Below are positions 4,503-14,931 of a stretch of 64,000 nt of DNA, one piece after another. The notes below the pieces were generated by a model, which saw only the letters and a list, made by a program, of their open reading frames with translations, did not search any database and was not told where the DNA came from. Source of the DNA: Clostridiales bacterium (lineage in GTDB: Bacteria; Bacillota; Clostridia; Christensenellales; CAG-138); contig WREI01000006.1 in assembly GCA_009779405.1 (NCBI GenBank), positions 1,171-65,170 of the forward strand, in the 5' to 3' direction. Numbering within the stretch: the stretch's first letter is position 1; every line of letters starts with the position of its first letter. The position numbers and the translations under genes were made by a program.

Positions 4503-5377
4503 TATCTTCCCTCCGCCACTCGAATCAAATACTGCCCGTAGGGGGAGCTGCCATAGCGCCCGGCGGACGCCAGCAGTTCGCCGCTTGTCAGCCAGCGGTT
4601 GCGGAACGCAATCTCCTCCGGCGCGGAAATCTGAATGCCCTGGCGGCTCTGCACCATGCGCACAAAGTCGGCCGCTTCGCAGAGCGAATCCGCCGTACCC
4701 ATATCGAGCCACGCGAAACCGCGCCGCAGCAGTTGCGCCCGCAGCGCACCCGCTTCTAAGTAGAGCCGATTCAGATCGGTAATCTCCAATTCCCCCCGCG
4801 CGCTCGGGCGCAATGCCTTCGCGAATTCGCAAACCCGCGCATCGTAAAAATACAGTCCCGTCACGCAGAGATTCGACTTCGGCGCGGCGGGCTTTTCCTC
4901 TATGGAAAGCACGGCGCCATCCGCATCCAACTCCATAATGCCGAAGCGATGCGGATCCGGCACATGATAGCCGAATACGGTGGCTATACCATCCGCGGCA
5001 TCCCGCGCCGCCTGCCGGAGATAGCCGCCCAGTCCGTTGCCATAAAAGAGATTGTCCCCCAGCACCATCGCGCAGGCGTCGCCGCCCACAAACGTCTCGC
5101 CAATGAGAAAGGCCTGCGCCAGCCCGCCGGGCGCACTCTGTACGGCATAGGACAGGGAAACGCCCATGCCCGCGCCGTCCCCCAGTAGCTGCGCAAAGCG
5201 CGGCGTGTCCTCGGGCGTGGAGATAATCAGAATCTCCCGTATCCCCGCCAGCATCAGCACGGAGAGCGGATAATAGATCATGGGCTTGTCATAGACGGGC
5301 AGGAGTTGCTTGCTGGTGACCAAGGTCAGCGGATACAACCGCGTACCCGCCCCTCCCGCGAGGATAATGCCTTTCAT
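4502..5377 (-). CDS. rfbA: Glucose-1-phosphate thymidylyltransferase
   Basis: [36 protein letters not shown] signature, full length. The start overlaps the upstream stop as ATGA. Confidence 0.95.
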
Positions 5378-6507
5378 TTGGGTCTCCCCCCTTGTGCTTT
5401 TTCCATCGCTTCCCGCAAGAACGCAATGGAAGTTTCTCTTTCCGTTAATAATTTTCCATCTAAAGCACTATAATCTGGAGGAACATATTTTCCTCTGTCA
5501 ACATACCCACCCGTTATGCTCAACTTGCCCAACAGGGTTCCAATGCGGTCATCGCTCTTATACCCCGATTCCGCGCGAACAAACGCCGCAAATGGCTTGC
5601 GAAACAAAACAGAGAAGGCAACGCCGTGGAAAGAATCCGTGCAGAACAAATTGGCGTGGGCTATGAGCCAAAGGAATTCCGCGGGATCGTATTGATATTC
5701 TATCGACTTCTTCGGATTTTGCAACTCTATAATTTCCAAACCCCGTTGCGCCGCCAACCTGTGTATATCGCGCCTGTATTGCCGCGTCATTTCGCCCAAA
5801 AAATAGCACAACACATAGGGGTTTTGCGGCACGTCTGCAGGCGCGCGGCCCATGTGCTCCCAAACCGCCGCGTCTATGCACAGGGTCGGATCCAGCACAA
5901 CGGGCGCCTGACGCCCCGTCAGTTCCGCAATAATTCTCGCTCCGCTTTCCTCCCGCACCGACAGATGAGGGATATCGGCGATCCACTTCGCGTAAAGTTC
6001 CTTTCGGATTTCCGGGATCTCCTGCACCCCAAAACTGGGCGCGTAGGCGATGCGTTGTTCCTGCGGCGCGAATTGCAGAAAGCGAACGGAGGAGGTATGC
6101 GTATAGAGAGGATTCCAAACCTGATCCGAGCCCGTGACAAACGCGGCATATACGCGCAACATATCCGAATCGGAAAAGGACGCGTTGGACAAAGAAACTT
6201 CACTGTCAACAACATAATCCTGCAAGAACGCATCAAAACGCTGCTTGCGCGCGGTCTGCAAGGCCTTACATTTCCGTCGCCGCGCCGCCAGCAGGCGATA
6301 GCGCAACACCTCCCATATATGCCCGGGTCGCAGACGTCGGCGCAATGACTCCTTGGGCAGCGGATCGGCAAACCCGCAGACCGTGCTATCCCGCAAGGTC
6401 TCCACTTCCACGCCCAAATCGCGCAAAAGCAGCACCATGGCGACATGCTGCAGCGCATTGCCATAGTTGCTGCCCTCCCGCAATGTCATCAATGCAACCT
6501 TCTTCAT
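5374..6507 (-). CDS. Polysaccharide pyruvyl transferase family protein
   Basis: Motifs [15 protein letters not shown] and [10 protein letters not shown] are typical of CsaB/WcaK-type pyruvyl transferases. I chose ATG 6507 as the start because it overlaps the upstream stop as ATGA. Alternative starts are 6522 and 6582. Confidence 0.8.
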
Positions 6508-7595
6508 CGCTGCCAAATCCATTTCCACTCCTGCAAACCCCCCGCTTCGACGAACCAATATACGATATATAGCGCAACACAAAGCGCGGTTACCAGTGAG
6601 CGCACCTTTTTATTGGGCGCGAGTTCCAATATATGTGGGATGCCGATGACGGCATACAAATTTGTATATATGCCGATACGTGCGAAATACGCGCTGTTCA
6701 TACTGGCGGTCACCAGCGCGGCATTAAAGAGCGTGAGATTTGCATAAAACTCCTTTTCGGTGTCCCAAAGGGGCAATTCACTCCATGTCTTCCTCTCCTT
6801 AAAAAAGTATAGGAGCAGTATTGGTGCCCAAGAAACCAGAATGCGGGGAAGCTGCACGACCCTCGTCGCATAGTTGCCCCCAGCTCCCAACAGATAGTTT
6901 TCCTGCCCGCGCACCTCATCCACAAAACTAAAAATGCGATCATAGGAGAGCATGCCAACAAGGACAATAATCGCTATAATTGTCCACTGTCGTTTATCTA
7001 AATTCTTGCCTGCAAAGAAATAGGGGAGTATCAAGAGCCATGCAGAAACGTGAAACAGCCCGCCAAAAAAGATGACGATCGCGTACCTCCAGAATTTCCT
7101 CTCCAAAATCAGCCGATGTCCTGCGAATACAACGGCGGCAGCCGCACATTGGCGTATGGCATTGAATGTGACATGCCAACCGCCCATCAGCATATAGAGT
7201 AAAATGCTTAGACATACGACGGGGGAATATTTGCCGATGGTGATAACCACAAGTCCTATAGTAAAAAGTGCTGACACGAAAAAGAAAGACGCATAGTCAG
7301 CATAGAACAGCTTTCCGATTTTTGCCAGCACATAGATGCCCGGTTCCTGCACACGAATGATTTCCAGAAAACCTGCTGGTGAATAATGCGCGTCATAGTT
7401 GAGGGCATATTGTGGATAATCCACACCGACGCGATAGCGTAGCCCCGCCACAATGGCGAGCGAGAGAAAAAGGAATACTGCAATCAGGGGCGATTTGCCA
7501 AGGGGTTTACTACGGATAAATCTCTCCCCCGACTGCCTGTCGACAATCAGCCAGGTGAAAAGGACAAGCGCGATCAGCAAGTAATACTGTACCAT
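6504..7595 (-). CDS. EpsG/Wzy-like polysaccharide polymerase (integral membrane)
   Basis: 363 aa, hydrophobic almost throughout with roughly ten helices, and no soluble domain. It lies among GT genes in a visibly AT-richer block. Confidence 0.7.
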   Translation of the reverse strand: MVQYYLLIALVLFTWLIVDRQSGERFIRSKPLGKSPLIAVFLFLSLAIVAGLRYRVGVDYPQYALNYDAHYSPAGFLEIIRVQEPGIYVLAKIGKLFYADYASFFFVSALFTIGLVVITIGKYSPVVCLSILLYMLMGGWHVTFNAIRQCAAAAVVFAGHRLILERKFWRYAIVIFFGGLFHVSAWLLILPYFFAGKNLDKRQWTIIAIIVLVGMLSYDRIFSFVDEVRGQENYLLGAGGNYATRVVQLPRILVSWAPILLLYFFKERKTWSELPLWDTEKEFYANLTLFNAALVTASMNSAYFARIGIYTNLYAVIGIPHILELAPNKKVRSLVTALCVALYIVYWFVEAGGLQEWKWIWQR

Positions 7596-7596
7596 G

Positions 7597-8427
7597 CTAA
7601 CCCCCTTTTTTGCGCCGCAGATAGCGCGCCGCCTGCATACGTCGGAATATGCGTTGCACCCAATAGGGTGTCAGACTCTTTGCAGAATTTCCGATAAAAG
7701 CTGCCAAAAGCCAAAGCCGTGGATATTCCAGCAACTTGTGCGCGAAAACGATGCTGGGCCAAATCTGCCAACGGACGCGGAAAGAACGCCGTGCAATGGC
7801 GTTTGCGTCCTCTCGTACCCGGTAGAGCGGCTCCGCTAAATTCGCCCCTTGGAACCCGGCGTGAAAGAAGCGCGCCCAAAGGTCATAATCCTGCCCGCGC
7901 TCTGTGCGCGGCAATACGGTATAACCGCTGAGCGCGTCGTACACGCGCTTATAGGTCAAAATCGTCGCGTGGAAGAAGGGAGTGCGTTTGCGCAAGGTAA
8001 ATTTGTCCGGTACCGGCAATGCATACACAATATCAGTCAAACCGACTTCCGAAAAACGCTGCATGGCCGTGCCAACCAAATCCAGATTCGAATGTTCGGC
8101 CAAAAAAGTCACCTGTTTTTCCAACCGTGTTGGCTCAGAAATATCGTCCGCGTCCATGCGCGCAATGAGACTACCCGTGCAATGCTCCAAGCAGCGGTTC
8201 AGGCTGAAAGCGAGCTTTTTGTTCTCCGCGTTTTGCAGTAAGATAAATCTGTCCGGGTGCTTCTCTTTGTATTCACAGAGTATCGCCCCAGTACCATCCA
8301 CGCTGGCGTCATCGCAAATCACAAACTCAATTTCCGCATAACTCTGCGCCAAGATGGAATCCACCGCGTCGCGTAGGGTTCCTTCGGCATTGTAAGCAGC
8401 CATTATGACGGAAATTTTCTCAGCCAT
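7597..8427 (-). CDS. Glycosyltransferase family 2
   Basis: ISVIMAAYNAEGTLRDAVDSILAQSYAEIEFVICDDASVDGT and MDADD (DxD). Confidence 0.85.
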   Translation of the reverse strand: MAEKISVIMAAYNAEGTLRDAVDSILAQSYAEIEFVICDDASVDGTGAILCEYKEKHPDRFILLQNAENKKLAFSLNRCLEHCTGSLIARMDADDISEPTRLEKQVTFLAEHSNLDLVGTAMQRFSEVGLTDIVYALPVPDKFTLRKRTPFFHATILTYKRVYDALSGYTVLPRTERGQDYDLWARFFHAGFQGANLAEPLYRVREDANAIARRSFRVRWQIWPSIVFAHKLLEYPRLWLLAAFIGNSAKSLTPYWVQRIFRRMQAARYLRRKKGG

Positions 8428-9391
8428 GCTTTCCTCTCAAAACGATATGCGGGTTATTCAGATTAATCCAACTGCCCATGCGCAAATCCCACTCCGGCGG
8501 TTGTATATTCCTGCAACCCCCGGAATGGTAAAGTGTAATTTCCCCGAAATAGATTTTCCCATCCACATTGTAAAGATCCACGCGGCAGAATGGAAAGGGC
8601 TCACTTAGTTTTTGTGCAATTTCCTTCATTCGCGCATAGTTCTCAGGTTGTGGGTGCACAACGCCTGAGGTGCGATCCATATCGCTTATAGGCAGCGTGT
8701 GCAGTTCTGCGTCGCAATAATCTAGTGTGTAATTGCGGTTATAGGTTCCATTCGCATGAAAAGAGTCCTCCTTTACGCAGACCAAGCGCACTTCCCCTTC
8801 AAAAGAGAGGAACTTGTAATCTGTAGGCCAATGCCCGGCGCTATCTCGCAACATCCACTCCGCTATAATCTGCGGCGCTATGTTTTTATAGTTCCACTCT
8901 CGCGATAGCCATTGATATTTCCATCTGCTCTCAAAGGCAAGCGCGCGGCGAATCAGTGCTCTCCCCGTCTCATTATCCAACTCTCCGTCTTTACGAAAAA
9001 AGATATTCCCACCCGAACCTTTGTTGCACTTTAGGATACTTTCTTCGCTCAAAACATTGAAATCTATATTTTGTGCTCTATCCCAAATTCCGTACAACGG
9101 AACCAAAATATCCGCAAAACCGCATTCTGCCACATAGTCCCGCACGGCCAGCTTATCGCTGCACCTCGTCAATTGCGGATCTCTATTGTTCAACTTCAGC
9201 CACCACTGCTTATCGTCAAAGGTCTTCGGTTCTTTCAGATGCAATTCTTTATTACATGTGCGCCAATACACCCATTTTGCATATAAAACATCGGGTACAA
9301 CGGAAAGCAAAACAGAGCGTAATGCCATCCATTGCCTGTTGCGCAGTTTTTTTCGCAGCTCGCGGACAGAAGGGTTATCATTTTTTCGCAT
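8420..9391 (-). CDS. TupA-like ATP-grasp amidoligase (paralog 1)
   Basis: KLAVRDYV..GFADILVPLYGIW, PTDYKF and the C-terminal CRVDLYNVDGKIYFGEITLYHSGG match the teichuronopeptide TupA-type ATP-grasp family. AGGAG lies upstream of ATG 9391. Confidence 0.75.
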   Translation of the reverse strand: MRKNDNPSVRELRKKLRNRQWMALRSVLLSVVPDVLYAKWVYWRTCNKELHLKEPKTFDDKQWWLKLNNRDPQLTRCSDKLAVRDYVAECGFADILVPLYGIWDRAQNIDFNVLSEESILKCNKGSGGNIFFRKDGELDNETGRALIRRALAFESRWKYQWLSREWNYKNIAPQIIAEWMLRDSAGHWPTDYKFLSFEGEVRLVCVKEDSFHANGTYNRNYTLDYCDAELHTLPISDMDRTSGVVHPQPENYARMKEIAQKLSEPFPFCRVDLYNVDGKIYFGEITLYHSGGCRNIQPPEWDLRMGSWINLNNPHIVLRGKHG

Positions 9392-10382
9392 AACTTTTTC
9401 TCCTTTCGCTCTTATAAACTATGTGTTCACTGTTCAAATCTATCCAGCTGCCCAGGCGCAGATCCCATTCCGGTGGCTTTATATCATTGCAGCCGCCACC
9501 ATGATAGAAAGTAATCTCCCCGAAATAGATTTTTCCCTCCAAATTATAGAGGTCGACGCGGCAAAAGGGAAAGGGCGCGGAGAGCGCGCGGCAGATATTG
9601 ATCATACGTTCCCAATTATCCGGCCTTTCGACCGCCATATCCGAATTCTCCCGCGTCTCGAGCATGGGGAGCAATTGAAAATTCATATCATACACATTGC
9701 GGCGATAATGATGATTCAGGCTGCCATCCTCGTGCAACACACCCAAATCCAAAGTCAGGATGCGCGGTTCCCCGCCGAAACAGAAGAATTTGTAATCCAG
9801 CGGCAGTCTGCCATCCTTGTCGCGCAGCACAGCTTCGGCAATAATTTTCGGTGGCACATTTTTATAGTGCCACTCGCGGGAAATCAGGTGATATTTCTGT
9901 CGCAAAGCATAGTCCATCACCTTGCGCATATAGCGATGCTTTTGCGGGTTATCCAGCTCTCCGCCCTTCGCGAAGAGGAAGTTATCCCCGCTGCCAACAT
10001 TGGGTTTGACCATGGCTTCGTCGGCGAACGTGTCAAAATCTATATCCTTTGGACGCTCCCATATACCGAGTGTCGGAACCAAAATATCCGCGAAGCCCGC
10101 GTTTATCACATAGTCGCGCACGGCAACCTTGTCCGCGCAGTGCGTGAGCAGAGGATTGCGATTATGCAGTTTCAACCACCATATTTTCTCATCAAAGGTG
10201 CGGGGATCTTCTAGATGTAAGCTTTTACCCGTATACCGCTTGTACATCCATTTGGCATATTTGGTGTCCGGCATCACGCATAGCAGATGCGCGGTGAAAT
10301 TACGTATGCGCATATAATGCAAACGAAAAGATACACGGGTATCCGCCAATTTGCGCAGCCTTTCCTTTATTCCATACAACAT
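9378..10382 (-). CDS. TupA-like ATP-grasp amidoligase (paralog 2)
   Basis: Colinear with the downstream paralog, at roughly half identity by eye (KVAVRDYV..GFADILVPTLGIW..CRVDLYNLEGKIYFGEITFYHGGG). The ORF-track start 10385 is GTG. ATG 10382 overlaps the upstream stop as TGATG. Confidence 0.75.
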   Translation of the reverse strand: MLYGIKERLRKLADTRVSFRLHYMRIRNFTAHLLCVMPDTKYAKWMYKRYTGKSLHLEDPRTFDEKIWWLKLHNRNPLLTHCADKVAVRDYVINAGFADILVPTLGIWERPKDIDFDTFADEAMVKPNVGSGDNFLFAKGGELDNPQKHRYMRKVMDYALRQKYHLISREWHYKNVPPKIIAEAVLRDKDGRLPLDYKFFCFGGEPRILTLDLGVLHEDGSLNHHYRRNVYDMNFQLLPMLETRENSDMAVERPDNWERMINICRALSAPFPFCRVDLYNLEGKIYFGEITFYHGGGCNDIKPPEWDLRLGSWIDLNSEHIVYKSERRKSYAKK

Positions 10383-11350
10383 CACATATCCCCCCTATAC
10401 CAAGCAATCGCCCTCTCCATCCCCTCGGCAAACCCAAATATCGGGTCATACCCCAAAGTCTCCTTCGCTTTCGCAATATCCGCATTGCTGTGCGGAATAT
10501 CTCCGGCGCGCGGCGGGCCGAAGCGGGGCGTGGTGTTTACGCCGAGGGCCTTGCAGATGCCCGCGTAGACGGAGAGCAGGGTCTCGCGCCCGCCGCAGGC
10601 GATGTTATAGGCGTGACCGCAGGCGGACGCAGGGGCGGTCAGCGCCGCCAGATTCGCCTGCACGGCGTTGTCCACGTAGGTGAAGTCGCGGCTCTGCGTG
10701 CCGTCGCCGTCAATGGTGGGCGTCTCCCCGCGCAGCAGTTGGGCGATGAATTTGGGGATTACGGCGGCGTATGCCCCTGCGGGGTCCTGGCGCTGCCCGA
10801 ACACGTTGAAATAGCGCAGACCCACGGTTTCCAGCCCATAGTGCAGCGTATATTGCCGCGCGTATTCCTCGTTCACGCGCTTGGTGACCGCGTAGGGCGA
10901 GAGCAGGCGCCCCTCTTCGCCTTCGCGCTTGGGCAGCTTCGGCGCATCGCCGTAGACCGAGGAGGAAGACGCATAGACAAAGCGTTTCACGCCCGCTTCC
11001 CGCGCCGCTTCGAGCATATGGAGCGTACCGCGTATATTGATCTCCTCATAGAGCAGGGGCAGCTGCACACTGCGCGGCACGGAGCCCCAGGCCGCCTGAT
11101 GAGAGACATAGTCCATGCCCTCGCAGGCGCGGCGGCAGGTCTCGAAGTCCCGGATATCGCCCTCCATCAGCGCAAACTGCGGATGCGCCGTAAAGGCCGC
11201 GATATTCTCCCGCTTGCCCGTGGAGAAATTGTCTAAGCAGCGTACAAAATAGCCCTCTTGGAGCAGGGTCTCCACAAGGTTGCTTCCTATGAAGCCCGCG
11301 CCGCCCGTGACGAGCACGCGGGCATTTTTCGGCAATTTCGGCAGCTGCAT
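10382..11350 (-). CDS. NAD-dependent UDP-sugar 4-epimerase (TviC/WbpP-like)
   Basis: VLVTGGAGFIGSNL Rossmann motif and YAVTKRVNEEY (YxxxK). The ORF-track start 11362 is TTG. ATG 11350 (MQLPKLPK..) overlaps the upstream stop as TGATG. Confidence 0.8.
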   Translation of the reverse strand: MQLPKLPKNARVLVTGGAGFIGSNLVETLLQEGYFVRCLDNFSTGKRENIAAFTAHPQFALMEGDIRDFETCRRACEGMDYVSHQAAWGSVPRSVQLPLLYEEINIRGTLHMLEAAREAGVKRFVYASSSSVYGDAPKLPKREGEEGRLLSPYAVTKRVNEEYARQYTLHYGLETVGLRYFNVFGQRQDPAGAYAAVIPKFIAQLLRGETPTIDGDGTQSRDFTYVDNAVQANLAALTAPASACGHAYNIACGGRETLLSVYAGICKALGVNTTPRFGPPRAGDIPHSNADIAKAKETLGYDPIFGFAEGMERAIAWYRGDM

Positions 11351-12693
11351 CACAATCTCCAATAGGTATAGCCCGCGGCTTCCATCTCGCCGCGATTCAA
11401 AATGCCCTTGATATCCGCCAGCAGGCGGCAGCGCGGGCCATATAGCGCGGACAGCTTTTCCGCGTCCAGATCGCGGAACGCCTCATGCGCCACGGCGATA
11501 ATCACCGCGTCCATATCCGCAATCGCGGTCAACGGCACCAATTCCAGCCCGTAATGCGCCCTCGCTTCGGCGGCGTCGGCCACAGGGTCGCAGACAGGCG
11601 GCCGGATGCCGTGGCGACGCAGTTCTTCTATAATATCCGTCACGCGGGTGTTGCGCGTGTCGGGGCAGTTCTCCTTAAAGGTCAGGCCCAGGATGGCGAT
11701 TTTCGCCTCGCCGACGCTTACGCCCTGTGCAAAAAGCGCATCGATTACGCGCTCCGCGACATATTTCCCCATCCCGTCGTTGATGCGCCGCCCGGCGAGT
11801 ATCACCTGGCTCGCATAGCCCAATTCCTCGGCCTTATAGGTGAGATAATAGGGGTCGACGCCGATGCAGTGGCCGCCGACAAGCCCCGGATAGAATTGCA
11901 GGAAGTTCCACTTCGTACCAGCCGCGGCGAGCACATCCTTTGTATCGATCCCCATCCTGTCAAAGATGAGGGAGAGCTCATTCATAAAGGCGATATTGAT
12001 ATCGCGCTGGCTGTTTTCGATGACCTTGGCTGCTTCGGCCACGCGTATCGTGGGCGCACGATGCACGCCCGCGTAGACCACCAGCTCATAGACGCGCGCA
12101 ACGGTATCCAGCGTTGCTTCATCCATGCCCGATACGATCTTGATGATGCTCTCCAAGCGGTGCGCGCGATCGCCCGGATTGATGCGCTCGGGCGAATAAC
12201 CCACAAAGAAGTCGCGCCCGCAGACCAGATTGCTCTCGCGCTCCAAAATAGGCACGCAAATCTCCTCGGTAACGCCGGGATAGACCGTCGACTCATAGAC
12301 CACGATGCTCCCCGCCCGTAAATACTTGCCCAGGGTCTCACTCGCACTGCGCAGGGGTCGCAGATCGGGGCTGTGGTCGGCATACACAGGGGTCGGCACG
12401 GCGACGATATGAAATTCCGCTTCCGCCAGCGCTGTCGCATCCGCGCTAAAGCGCAGTGTGCTCTGCGCCAAAACGTCATCGCCCACCTCGCCCGTGGCGT
12501 CGCGCCCGGCCATATATTGCGCCACCTTCGCGGTATTGCTGTCATAGCCGATCACTTGCAGTTTCTTCGCAAAAGCGACGGCGATAGGCAACCCAACATA
12601 GCCCAGGCCGATGACAGAGAGGGTTGCTTGTTTGGCTATGAGACGGTCGTATAGTTCCAAACTATATATCCTCTTTCTTCGCGGGCGAGGCAT
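11350..12693 (-). CDS. UDP-N-acetyl-hexosamine 6-dehydrogenase (TviB/WbpO-like nucleotide-sugar dehydrogenase)
   Basis: LSVIGLGYVGLPIAVAF NAD fold and the GGHCIGVDPYY catalytic-Cys motif. ATG 12693 lies inside a palindromic repeat. An alternative start is TTG 12660, 8 nt after AAGAGGA. Confidence 0.8.
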   Translation of the reverse strand: MPRPRRKRIYSLELYDRLIAKQATLSVIGLGYVGLPIAVAFAKKLQVIGYDSNTAKVAQYMAGRDATGEVGDDVLAQSTLRFSADATALAEAEFHIVAVPTPVYADHSPDLRPLRSASETLGKYLRAGSIVVYESTVYPGVTEEICVPILERESNLVCGRDFFVGYSPERINPGDRAHRLESIIKIVSGMDEATLDTVARVYELVVYAGVHRAPTIRVAEAAKVIENSQRDINIAFMNELSLIFDRMGIDTKDVLAAAGTKWNFLQFYPGLVGGHCIGVDPYYLTYKAEELGYASQVILAGRRINDGMGKYVAERVIDALFAQGVSVGEAKIAILGLTFKENCPDTRNTRVTDIIEELRRHGIRPPVCDPVADAAEARAHYGLELVPLTAIADMDAVIIAVAHEAFRDLDAEKLSALYGPRCRLLADIKGILNRGEMEAAGYTYWRL

Positions 12694-12732
12694 GCCTCGC
12701 CCCTACACGGGCGGATGATATCCGCCCCTACG
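12681..12732 (-). repeat. Two tandem GTAGGGGCG-type palindromic (REP-like) units
   Basis: The minus strand reads cGTAGGGGCGGATATCATCCGCCCgtGTAGGGGCGAGGCATGCCTCGCCCgc. The units lie between the GT4 gene and the tviB-like gene, and the second hairpin contains ATG 12693. Confidence 0.8.
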
Positions 12733-12735
12733 ATT

Positions 12736-13866
12736 TTATGTTCCCAATAGTTCCTCCAAAATCACCCGGTTCACTTCCCGCACGTCAAAGCGTTCCTGTG
12801 CGTATTCGCGGCTGCGCTTGCCCATGCGCTTGGCTAATTCACGGTCGCCCGCCAGCTTGCGCATGGCGTCGGCCAGGGCGTCCACATTGCCCACGGGGAG
12901 CAGGAATCCGTTCCTTCCGTCGCGTACCGTCTCGCGGCAGCCGGGCGCGTCGGTGGTGATGATGGCCCGTCCCGTCGCCATCGCTTCCAATGCCGAGCGC
13001 GGCGTACCCTCGTGGTGGGAGGGGAGGACAAAGGCATAACAGTCGCAGAGCGCGGGGCGTATATCTTTCAAAAAGCCCAAAAACTGCACGCTGCCGTCCC
13101 GGATATAGGGCTCCACATCCTCGGGCTGCATCGCGCTCGGGTTGCTGTCATAATAGCCCGCCATCGCAAAGGTCGCGGGCAGGCCCTCCCGCGTCAGGCG
13201 CCGCGCCGCTTCCAAAAACTCCGGCAGACCCTTATCGGCCAAAAAGCGGCCCACAAAGAGGAAACGCTTTTCGTTCGGCAGGGGCGTCGGCAGAAAATTC
13301 TCCAAATTGACCCCGCTGCCGTTCAAAATGCGCAGCTTATCGGGATCCACAATGCCGCCGTCGACAAAGAGCTTCGCGTTGTCCGGGTTCTGAAAGAAGA
13401 CTGTCCGCGCCCGCTTCAGCGCGTAACGATATTGAAAGAGCAGCAGGCGGCGCAAGAGCTTGCCGCGCAGATCCGTCCCCCTGTGCATCAGCACGGAACC
13501 CAAACCGTTGATCAGCGCGAAGCGCGCCGGAACCTTCGCCACCTTCGCCGCAGGCAGTCCGTAGACCACAGCCTTGGCGTGGAAGCAGAAGAGCAGGTCC
13601 GGTTGCAGCGCCTGCAGCACCTTCTTCACCGCCCGCGCCGCCTTGATATCCGCCGAAACCTTGGTGCCGTTGCGATCCAAGGGTACGGGGATGAAGGACA
13701 GCCCCTCGGCCAGCAGCGCGCGCTCCGTCTTCGGATCCGCTGGTGCCAGCACGGTCGTCTCCAAACCCGCCCGCATAAAGTCGCGCAGCAGGTCCAAACG
13801 CAAAGTCAGGAGCGTCGGCGCATCGCAACAGAGCACGGCCACCTTTTTATGTACATTTTCCGCCAT
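12736..13866 (-). CDS. Glycosyltransferase family 4 (GT-B)
   Basis: C-terminal EGTPRSALEAMATGRAIITTDAPGCRETV (E-x7-E signature). Confidence 0.85.
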   Translation of the reverse strand: MAENVHKKVAVLCCDAPTLLTLRLDLLRDFMRAGLETTVLAPADPKTERALLAEGLSFIPVPLDRNGTKVSADIKAARAVKKVLQALQPDLLFCFHAKAVVYGLPAAKVAKVPARFALINGLGSVLMHRGTDLRGKLLRRLLLFQYRYALKRARTVFFQNPDNAKLFVDGGIVDPDKLRILNGSGVNLENFLPTPLPNEKRFLFVGRFLADKGLPEFLEAARRLTREGLPATFAMAGYYDSNPSAMQPEDVEPYIRDGSVQFLGFLKDIRPALCDCYAFVLPSHHEGTPRSALEAMATGRAIITTDAPGCRETVRDGRNGFLLPVGNVDALADAMRKLAGDRELAKRMGKRSREYAQERFDVREVNRVILEELLGT

Positions 13867-13948
13867 ATATATACCCCACCCACAATATCACATACAGTAT
13901 ACTCGAAAACGTTCGATTATTCAATGCCCTGCGTATAACAAATACGCA

Positions 13949-14905: not shown

Positions 14906-14931
14906 AAAAAAAGGGTATGCCGTGCATACCC
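14906..14931 (-). terminator. Rho-independent terminator after rny
   Basis: The minus strand reads GGGTATGCacgGCATACCC followed by TTTTTTTT, about 20 nt after the rny stop. Confidence 0.8.

Follow-up and report, generated by a model that had tools for sequence, protein, structure and literature searches.

A predicted uronic-acid supply pair followed by two TupA-like ligases

We analysed a 64,000-nucleotide (nt) stretch of contig WREI01000006.1 (GCA_009779405.1), from the metagenome-assembled genome of an uncultured Clostridiales bacterium; this whole stretch is called the window below. On its minus strand, the window encodes a TviB/WbpO-like UDP-N-acetylhexosamine (UDP-HexNAc) 6-dehydrogenase (11350..12693), a WbpP/WbgU/TviC-like 4-epimerase for UDP-HexNAc or its uronic acid (UDP-HexNAcA) (10382..11350, or 11362 as upper coordinate), and two TupA-like ATP-grasp carboxylate-amine ligases, TupA1 (9378..10382) and TupA2 (8420..9391). 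An earlier note on this DNA had named the four genes in this order and proposed that they are translationally coupled, and both statements were confirmed. The dehydrogenase/epimerase junction reads TGATG and the epimerase/TupA1 junction reads (G)TGATG, while TupA1 and TupA2 overlap by 14 nt, with a strong Shine-Dalgarno sequence, AAAGGAGA, placed 7 nt 5' of the TupA2 start. Stop and start codons thus overlap at every junction, and TupA2 in turn overlaps the next gene by 8 nt.

The four genes are part of a Wzy-type surface-polysaccharide operon. Ahead of the dehydrogenase lies a gene for a GT4 glycosyltransferase (12736..13866, minus strand; Pfam Glyco_trans_1_4 and Glycos_transf_1). TupA2 is followed on the same strand by an EpsE-like GT2 glycosyltransferase (7597..8427; Pfam Glycos_transf_2; NCBIfam EpsE at 260.6 bits, below cut-off), an EpsG-family (Wzy-like) polymerase (6504..7595; Pfam EpsG, 151.9 bits) and a polysaccharide pyruvyltransferase (5374..6582; Pfam PS_pyruv_trans, 115.3 bits), and then by rmlA/C/B and two further GT2 genes.

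The dehydrogenase contains the full set of three UDPG_MGDP_dh domains. TviB is by far its best match in NCBIfam, with 458.9 bits where the equivalog NF011729 requires 592, and the next equivalog is of the WecC type (211 bits). The epimerase (Pfam Epimerase, 215 bits) has TviC as its best NCBIfam match, at 294.9 bits and below the cut-off of 760 for NF011728. Among solved structures, WbpP was the best named match of the epimerase (307.6 bits), followed by WbgU (291 bits), and the structure of an unnamed capsular biosynthesis protein scored slightly above WbpP. These matches place the enzyme, by sequence, in the HexNAc-specific epimerase group. The genome assembly is 92.7% complete, and in it we found a single gene of the UDP-sugar dehydrogenase family, no second source of uronic acid and no ATPgrasp_ST partner gene.

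Both ligases belong to PF14305 (cut-off 25 bits). TupA1 covers positions 1-240 of the 241 profile positions with 140.1 bits, TupA2 covers positions 5-240 with 112.8 bits, and the two proteins are 51% identical over 305 residues. They are stand-alone, single-domain, soluble proteins of about 325 amino acids (aa) with no membrane span, and their N-terminal helices are basic, with 13 lysines and arginines in the first 55 residues. AlphaFold2 models of TupA1 and TupA2 had mean confidence (pLDDT) values of 93.0 and 94.7, respectively. When both models were compared with the PDB by Foldseek, the matches were LysX/ArgX, DcsG, PsnB, Ddl and RimK (E about 1e-6, TM about 0.4), and the two proteins are accordingly modelled as having the ATP-grasp fold. 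Neither phmmer searches with both proteins nor an 88-sequence profile found a true relative of known structure in the PDB, so TupA1 and TupA2 are linked to solved ATP-grasp enzymes by fold comparison only. Almost nothing on PF14305 or PF14397 as such was present in the literature searched.

An alignment of 88 diverse TupA-like proteins contained 11 invariant columns, including K126, E170, R275, D277, E289 and T291 (TupA1 numbering), K126 being the lysine of the central domain and the last four forming the motifs R-x-D and E-x-T in the last two strands. The roles of these residues in ATP-grasp catalysis were assigned by motif position and not by superposition. The earlier note had considered that one paralog might have lost its catalytic residues; all 11 invariant residues are kept in both TupA1 and TupA2.

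Conservation of the module and duplication of TupA1

A scan of one genome per prokaryotic species yielded 38 usable loci encoding a relative of TupA1. A locus was counted as carrying the module when a dehydrogenase and an epimerase gene were followed on their strand, at a distance of no more than a few kilobases, by a gene of the TupA1 clade. In 31 of the 38 loci the dehydrogenase (59-69% identity) and the epimerase (60-68%) were encoded on the strand of the TupA gene, mostly directly upstream of it, and 3 of the 7 exceptions had too little upstream sequence to judge. In 27 of the 31 module loci a GT4 homologue (27-49% identity) preceded the dehydrogenase, mostly as its immediate neighbour, and a GT2 homologue (38-58% identity) followed the TupA gene in many related loci. 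The window, with the order GT4, dehydrogenase, epimerase, TupA, carries the same module, of which GT4 is the first gene. Since the module loci span many lineages of Bacillota (Oscillospiraceae, Ruminococcus, Lachnospiraceae, Christensenella of the Christensenellaceae, Sarcina, Salimicrobium of the Bacillaceae, Aerococcaceae, Tissierellaceae and Erysipelotrichia), the association of the TupA1 subfamily with a supply pair for HexNAc-derived uronic acid is old and has been maintained. That TupA is tied to uronic-acid supply, as the earlier note had proposed, is supported by this synteny, which provides the strongest argument for the functional idea. The module has no conserved gene for making an amine, and this makes a widely available metabolite the likely amine, with an amino acid as the simplest choice.

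Further predicted carboxylate-modifying genes were present in 13 of the 31 module loci. Seven of these loci had a second, distant TupA-like gene (28-35% identity), usually behind the polymerase gene; seven had a 'sugar-transfer associated' ATP-grasp gene (PF14397) inserted among the dehydrogenase, epimerase and TupA genes; and five had a weak asparagine-synthase-like gene. In loci L023 (7438-9009) and L027 (7392-9005), the last of these encodes a protein of 523-537 aa that scores 20.3 bits, just under cut-off, and lies between the dehydrogenase and the epimerase; it may be an amidotransferase that forms a primary amide.

In the GTDB family to which the genome belongs, TupA-like genes were found in 61 of 240 genomes. 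Two of these have triple tandem arrays, L062 (G223:C16, 7133-10200) and L063 (G225:C142, 3501-6767), whose copies share 55-64% identity with one another, compared with 43-47% between G223 and G225. Because identity within the arrays exceeds that between the genomes, the arrays were amplified locally, repeatedly and independently. They resemble the window in that TupA-like ligases have been multiplied locally, in tandem, within glycan loci. They differ from it in being triplets of another TupA subfamily (34-40% identity to TupA1 and TupA2), with no TviB/TviC pair immediately ahead of them. In none of the 38 loci did two genes of the module-associated clade itself stand in tandem, an arrangement seen in the window. 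Multi-ligase loci are common, as are tandem TupA arrays in sister genomes, and the finding is ordinary for glycan loci of gut Clostridia. Two relatives of about 720-730 aa, encoded at L003 (1489-3648) and L004 (55-2253) in genomes G009 and G007, have a Wzy_C membrane domain of the O-antigen ligase/polymerase-like kind fused to a C-terminal TupA-like ATP-grasp domain. Open frames of about 710-765 aa also surround TupA-like matches in many further genomes of the family.

The closest matches of TupA1 and TupA2 were searched among 5.8 billion (5.8e9) proteins. The closest relative of TupA1 was protein P0002 (66% identity). The best match of TupA2 was TupA1 itself (52%), all others being at or below 51%, and no orthologue of TupA2 was found elsewhere in these databases. 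Trees were built from 65 rows, and from 41 rows with the odd segment described below masked. TupA2 fell in a six-row clade with TupA1, P0002, P0009 and the orthologue from the same genus (support 100/99), as sister to TupA1 plus P0002 (support 92/83). Its end branch was 0.71-0.96 changes per site compared with 0.22-0.25 for TupA1. Since its best match is TupA1 and the trees group both, TupA2 is a lineage-specific tandem duplicate of TupA1 that evolved three to four times faster. The earlier note had described two diverged paralogs. The divergence stands, at 51% identity. The paralogs do not represent two old types conserved side by side, as database matches and trees make TupA2 a local duplicate. 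The grouping of TupA2 with TupA1 and the same-genus orthologue at 100/99 also rules out that TupA2 is a xenologue that arrived with the GT2/EpsG cassette. Recent gene conversion between the two genes was likewise ruled out, the best nucleotide match being 78% over 144 nt.

The divergence of TupA2 is not spread evenly. An alignment of 140 homologues gave 120 columns with a conservation of 90% or more. TupA2 deviates from the consensus in 27 of them and TupA1 in 14, whereas the median for other members is 2 and their highest value 17. The changes affect 16 of the 26 conserved columns within TupA2 residues 188-241 but just 11 of the 94 in the rest of the protein (Fisher p = 7e-7). TupA1 has no such cluster in the corresponding columns (3 of 26 against 11 of 94), and outside the segment TupA2 matches the consensus as well as TupA1 or better (residues 48-128 and 242-323). 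Seven positions are switched in TupA2: D212K, R228L, N229D, F235L, L237T, R244D and N246T (TupA1 numbering). They are conserved in the module-associated core clade and shared by other TupA subfamilies in 0-4 of 10 cases, a pattern such as would be expected of specificity positions. No other TupA-like clade fits residues 188-241 better, the best identity being 34-41% to members of the core clade, and a mosaic origin of the segment was rejected.

As judged by its position, the segment of about 54 residues falls between the nucleotide-binding part and the catalytic R-x-D...E-x-T strands, the region in which D-Ala-D-Ala ligases have the loop that chooses their second substrate. TupA2 is without two arginines conserved in the clade and has one new lysine, which hints, speculatively, at an altered charge of its substrate. 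The localised remodelling makes it plausible that the two paralogs differ in specificity, as the earlier note had suggested.

Neighbouring genes and boundaries of the operon

The earlier note had pointed to an M19 dipeptidase just upstream of the four genes as a hint of a connection to the amine donor. This connection fails. The GT4 gene separates the dipeptidase from the dehydrogenase, and a homologue of the dipeptidase was found in none of the 38 related loci. A promoter-like site (13896-13924, minus strand; consensus match only) is located between the dipeptidase and the GT4 gene, and a terminator-like hairpin with a T7 tail (14913-14931, minus strand; consensus match only) lies just after the RNase Y gene. 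This layout suggests that the glycan operon has its own transcription start. The absence of the dipeptidase from the 38 loci and the promoter-like site before GT4 rule it out as the amine supplier, and it is treated as an unrelated neighbour.

Two tandem GC-rich hairpins without a T-tail (12695..12735, minus strand), seen in the sequence and in the RNA fold, lie in the gap between the GT4 and dehydrogenase genes. The region 12650-12745 folds at -36.4 kcal/mol (z = -3.5), and the hairpins might serve RNA processing or stability, or act as a partial attenuator within the operon. The dehydrogenase ATG at 12693 sits in the loop of the second hairpin, and AGAGGA is found 8 nt upstream of a TTG at 12660, which is more likely the true start. 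The GC content is 46-54% from TupA1 through the pyruvyltransferase against 59-63% in the flanks, with the lowest value of the operon, 0.464, in TupA2. Glycan loci commonly show such a drop in their variable core.

The gene rmlD is absent from the rmlA/C/B run of the window and was found elsewhere in the genome (contig C3:16163-17032; PF04321, 324 bits), so that the dTDP-rhamnose pathway is complete. No flippase was identified among the operon genes in the window. The sole initiating phosphoglycosyl transferase of the Bac_transf type found in the assembly (contig C23:27839-28411) is unlinked to the operon and neighbours bacterial-microcompartment (BMC) genes, namely PTAC, an aldehyde dehydrogenase and a BMC shell gene.

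Known systems, a proposed pathway and its alternatives

The nearest biochemical precedent is Cj1438C of Campylobacter jejuni. As described in PMC11800379, this domain forms an amide of glucuronic acid (GlcA) from ATP and serinol phosphate or ethanolamine phosphate, and its amidation must come before the next glycosyl transfer. It is the sole TupA-like domain characterised biochemically. The C-terminal domains of Cj1438 (HS:2) and HS19.11 are like the ligases of the window in the TupA-like ATP-grasp fold as described, the location in a surface-polysaccharide locus, the predicted amide chemistry and an amidation between two glycosyl transfers. In Cj1438, however, the TupA domain is fused to a GT2 domain, whereas the ligases of the window are stand-alone proteins in two tandem copies. 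The acid sugar is GlcA in C. jejuni and would be N-acetylgalactosaminuronic acid (GalNAcA) or N-acetylglucosaminuronic acid (GlcNAcA), made by a TviB/TviC-type pair, in the window. Cj1438 also has supply genes for its amine phosphate, serinol phosphate or ethanolamine phosphate, and a partner HAD phosphatase, which are not among the operon genes of the window. Indeed, no HAD phosphatase or aminotransferase was found among the operon genes scanned, and the bifunctional architecture of Cj1438 was not encountered.

The supply pair itself has familiar counterparts. TviB/TviC of the Vi antigen and WbpO/WbpP of Pseudomonas aeruginosa O6 likewise place a dehydrogenase beside a 4-epimerase and supply UDP-GalNAcA. 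In P. aeruginosa O6, an asparagine-synthase-like enzyme turns the carboxylate of GalNAcA into a primary amide, whereas in the window an ATP-grasp ligase follows the supply pair instead. The capsule of Acinetobacter baumannii K17 contains GalNAcA amide-linked to D-alanine (as cited in PMC10715181), which has been attributed to Alt1 (bioRxiv 10.64898/2026.07.20.739706). This product is of the same class as that predicted for the window, Alt1 being compared by product only; K17 has a single transferase in a Gram-negative K locus, and the window has two ligases. PMC13419641 names TupA of Bacillus halodurans, from the teichuronopeptide system, as the namesake of PF14305 and WemR of Proteus mirabilis as a predicted member. 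Citing Iyer et al. 2009, it ties both to amino-acid-bearing uronic-acid polymers, on evidence that is genetic or predictive only. The ligases of the window share a family with these two proteins and are likened to them by membership, not by sequence comparison.

We infer each chemical step of the following pathway; its starting points are the observed gene identities, coupling, synteny, duplication history, retained residues and localised remodelling. The dehydrogenase and the 4-epimerase, judged by their families, would convert UDP-GlcNAc to UDP-GlcNAcA and UDP-GalNAcA. The GT4 enzyme encoded upstream, given its conserved adjacency, would probably place the acid sugar on a lipid-linked repeat unit. 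In the cytoplasm, TupA1 would then use ATP to form an acyl phosphate at the C6 carboxylate, which would react with an amine common in cells, an amino acid being the likeliest. As for Cj1438C, amidation would take place ahead of the next glycosyl transfer and export, and the GT2 enzyme encoded after TupA2 may depend on an amidated acceptor, like the GT2 domains of C. jejuni. The EpsG-type polymerase would assemble the units, and the pyruvyltransferase would supply a second kind of carboxylate in the repeat unit. TupA2 would still be a working ligase, most likely with a different amine or a different carboxylate. As the assembly contains a single UDP-sugar dehydrogenase, TupA2 is left with three candidate carboxylates: that of a HexNAcA, perhaps at another site in the unit, that of the amino acid added first, which would yield a dipeptide, and that of a pyruvate ketal.

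We consider it fairly probable that TupA1 and TupA2 amidate carboxylates on a repeat unit containing GalNAcA or GlcNAcA and differ in amine or acceptor specificity. Several observations weigh against this proposal. The TviB assignment is a functional analogy and the exact sugar is deduced, with both supply enzymes scoring under their equivalog cut-offs. Amide formation is extrapolated from one characterised relative, Cj1438C, which lies outside the module clade studied here, and the likeness to Cj1438C is one of described fold and chemistry. The putative substrate-selecting role of residues 188-241 is deduced from their position in the fold rather than from superposition. TupA2 is the most deviant of 142 family members, which also fits early decay. 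In addition, G001, a genome of the same genus, has an orthologue of TupA1 without an adjacent dehydrogenase or epimerase (contig C65; L054, 2617-8280). The gene order there is PF14397 ATP-grasp, TupA, GNAT acetyltransferase, GT2, GT4 and EpsG with no TviB/TviC pair, and the best dehydrogenase of this 87%-complete genome is merely 27% identical. Finally, the TupA-like protein CfmP of Klebsiella affects a fimbrial protein and acts independently of surface polysaccharides (PMC13419641), so the TupA-like family is not restricted to sugar acids.

These points bear on three alternatives. TupA2 could be redundant or decaying, in which case the chemistry would depend on TupA1 alone and the presence of two copies would make no chemical difference. 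The missing orthologue among 5.8e9 proteins, the 27 departures at 120 conserved columns, an end branch three to four times that of TupA1 and the lowest GC content of the operon would all fit, but the open reading frame is intact (323 codons), begins behind a strong Shine-Dalgarno sequence and overlaps its neighbours on both sides. All 11 family-invariant residues have been kept along a branch of about 0.7-1 change per site, and the changes are packed into one 54-residue stretch, as neutral decay would not do. We therefore regard decay of TupA2 as unlikely. Rather less credence is given to amidation of the nucleotide sugar, in which a UDP-HexNAcA amide would be made before glycosyl transfer. 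The adjacency of dehydrogenase, epimerase and TupA, like a precursor-supply module, and the soluble proteins without membrane span would agree with it, whereas Cj1438C, as described in PMC11800379, takes as its substrate a GlcA that has been attached to the end of the chain under construction. The fusions of TupA domains to Wzy_C in relatives and to GT2 in C. jejuni suggest that the ligases act on the assembling, membrane-bound glycan and not on the nucleotide sugar; the basic N-terminal helices would suit a membrane-peripheral enzyme. We think it improbable, the most so of the three, that one or both ligases modify a target other than a sugar acid, be it a protein, as has been proposed for Klebsiella CfmP, a pyruvate-ketal carboxylate or a small metabolite. 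CfmP, the pyruvyltransferase in the same operon with the other carboxylate it offers, and the G001 orthologue would speak for such a target, yet the synteny of the TupA1 subfamily with the uronic-acid module in 31 of 38 loci makes a strong case for a sugar acid as the target of TupA1, and both genes lie mid-way in a translationally coupled glycan operon.

TupA2 might be a recently neofunctionalised enzyme that adds a second, distinct amide, or builds a sugar-linked dipeptide, on the GalNAcA-containing capsule of a gut commensal. We put this forward tentatively, as a possibility on which we would not yet rely.

What is new here is the GT4-dehydrogenase-epimerase-TupA module across Bacillota, the exclusion of the dipeptidase as a partner, and the identification of TupA2 as a rapidly diverging duplicate of local origin whose catalytic core is intact and in which one segment has been rebuilt. 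The proposed reading of the TupA locus is a sound, testable prediction, and the locus is not a system of a new kind. When an acidic sugar is amidated, its charge is lost or inverted, and because that charge is altered such decorations shape recognition of the bacterial surface by phages, antibodies and lectins of the host. For enzymes that couple amino acids to sugar acids, biochemical knowledge comes from one Campylobacter domain. A TupA subfamily that travels with a UDP-HexNAcA supply pair and a GT4 gene across many Gram-positive lineages, cultured carriers such as Salimicrobium album DSM 20748, Sarcina sp. DSM 11001 and Aerococcaceae bacterium DSM 111020 included, offers a cheap and concrete test system. 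The TupA1/TupA2 pair, with an intact core and one rebuilt segment, probably points to residues that set the choice of substrate. If TupA2 is indeed neofunctionalised, the seven switched residues would mark specificity-determining positions of TupA-like amidoligases, and the pair would be a natural before-and-after experiment for the substrate code of an almost uncharacterised family.

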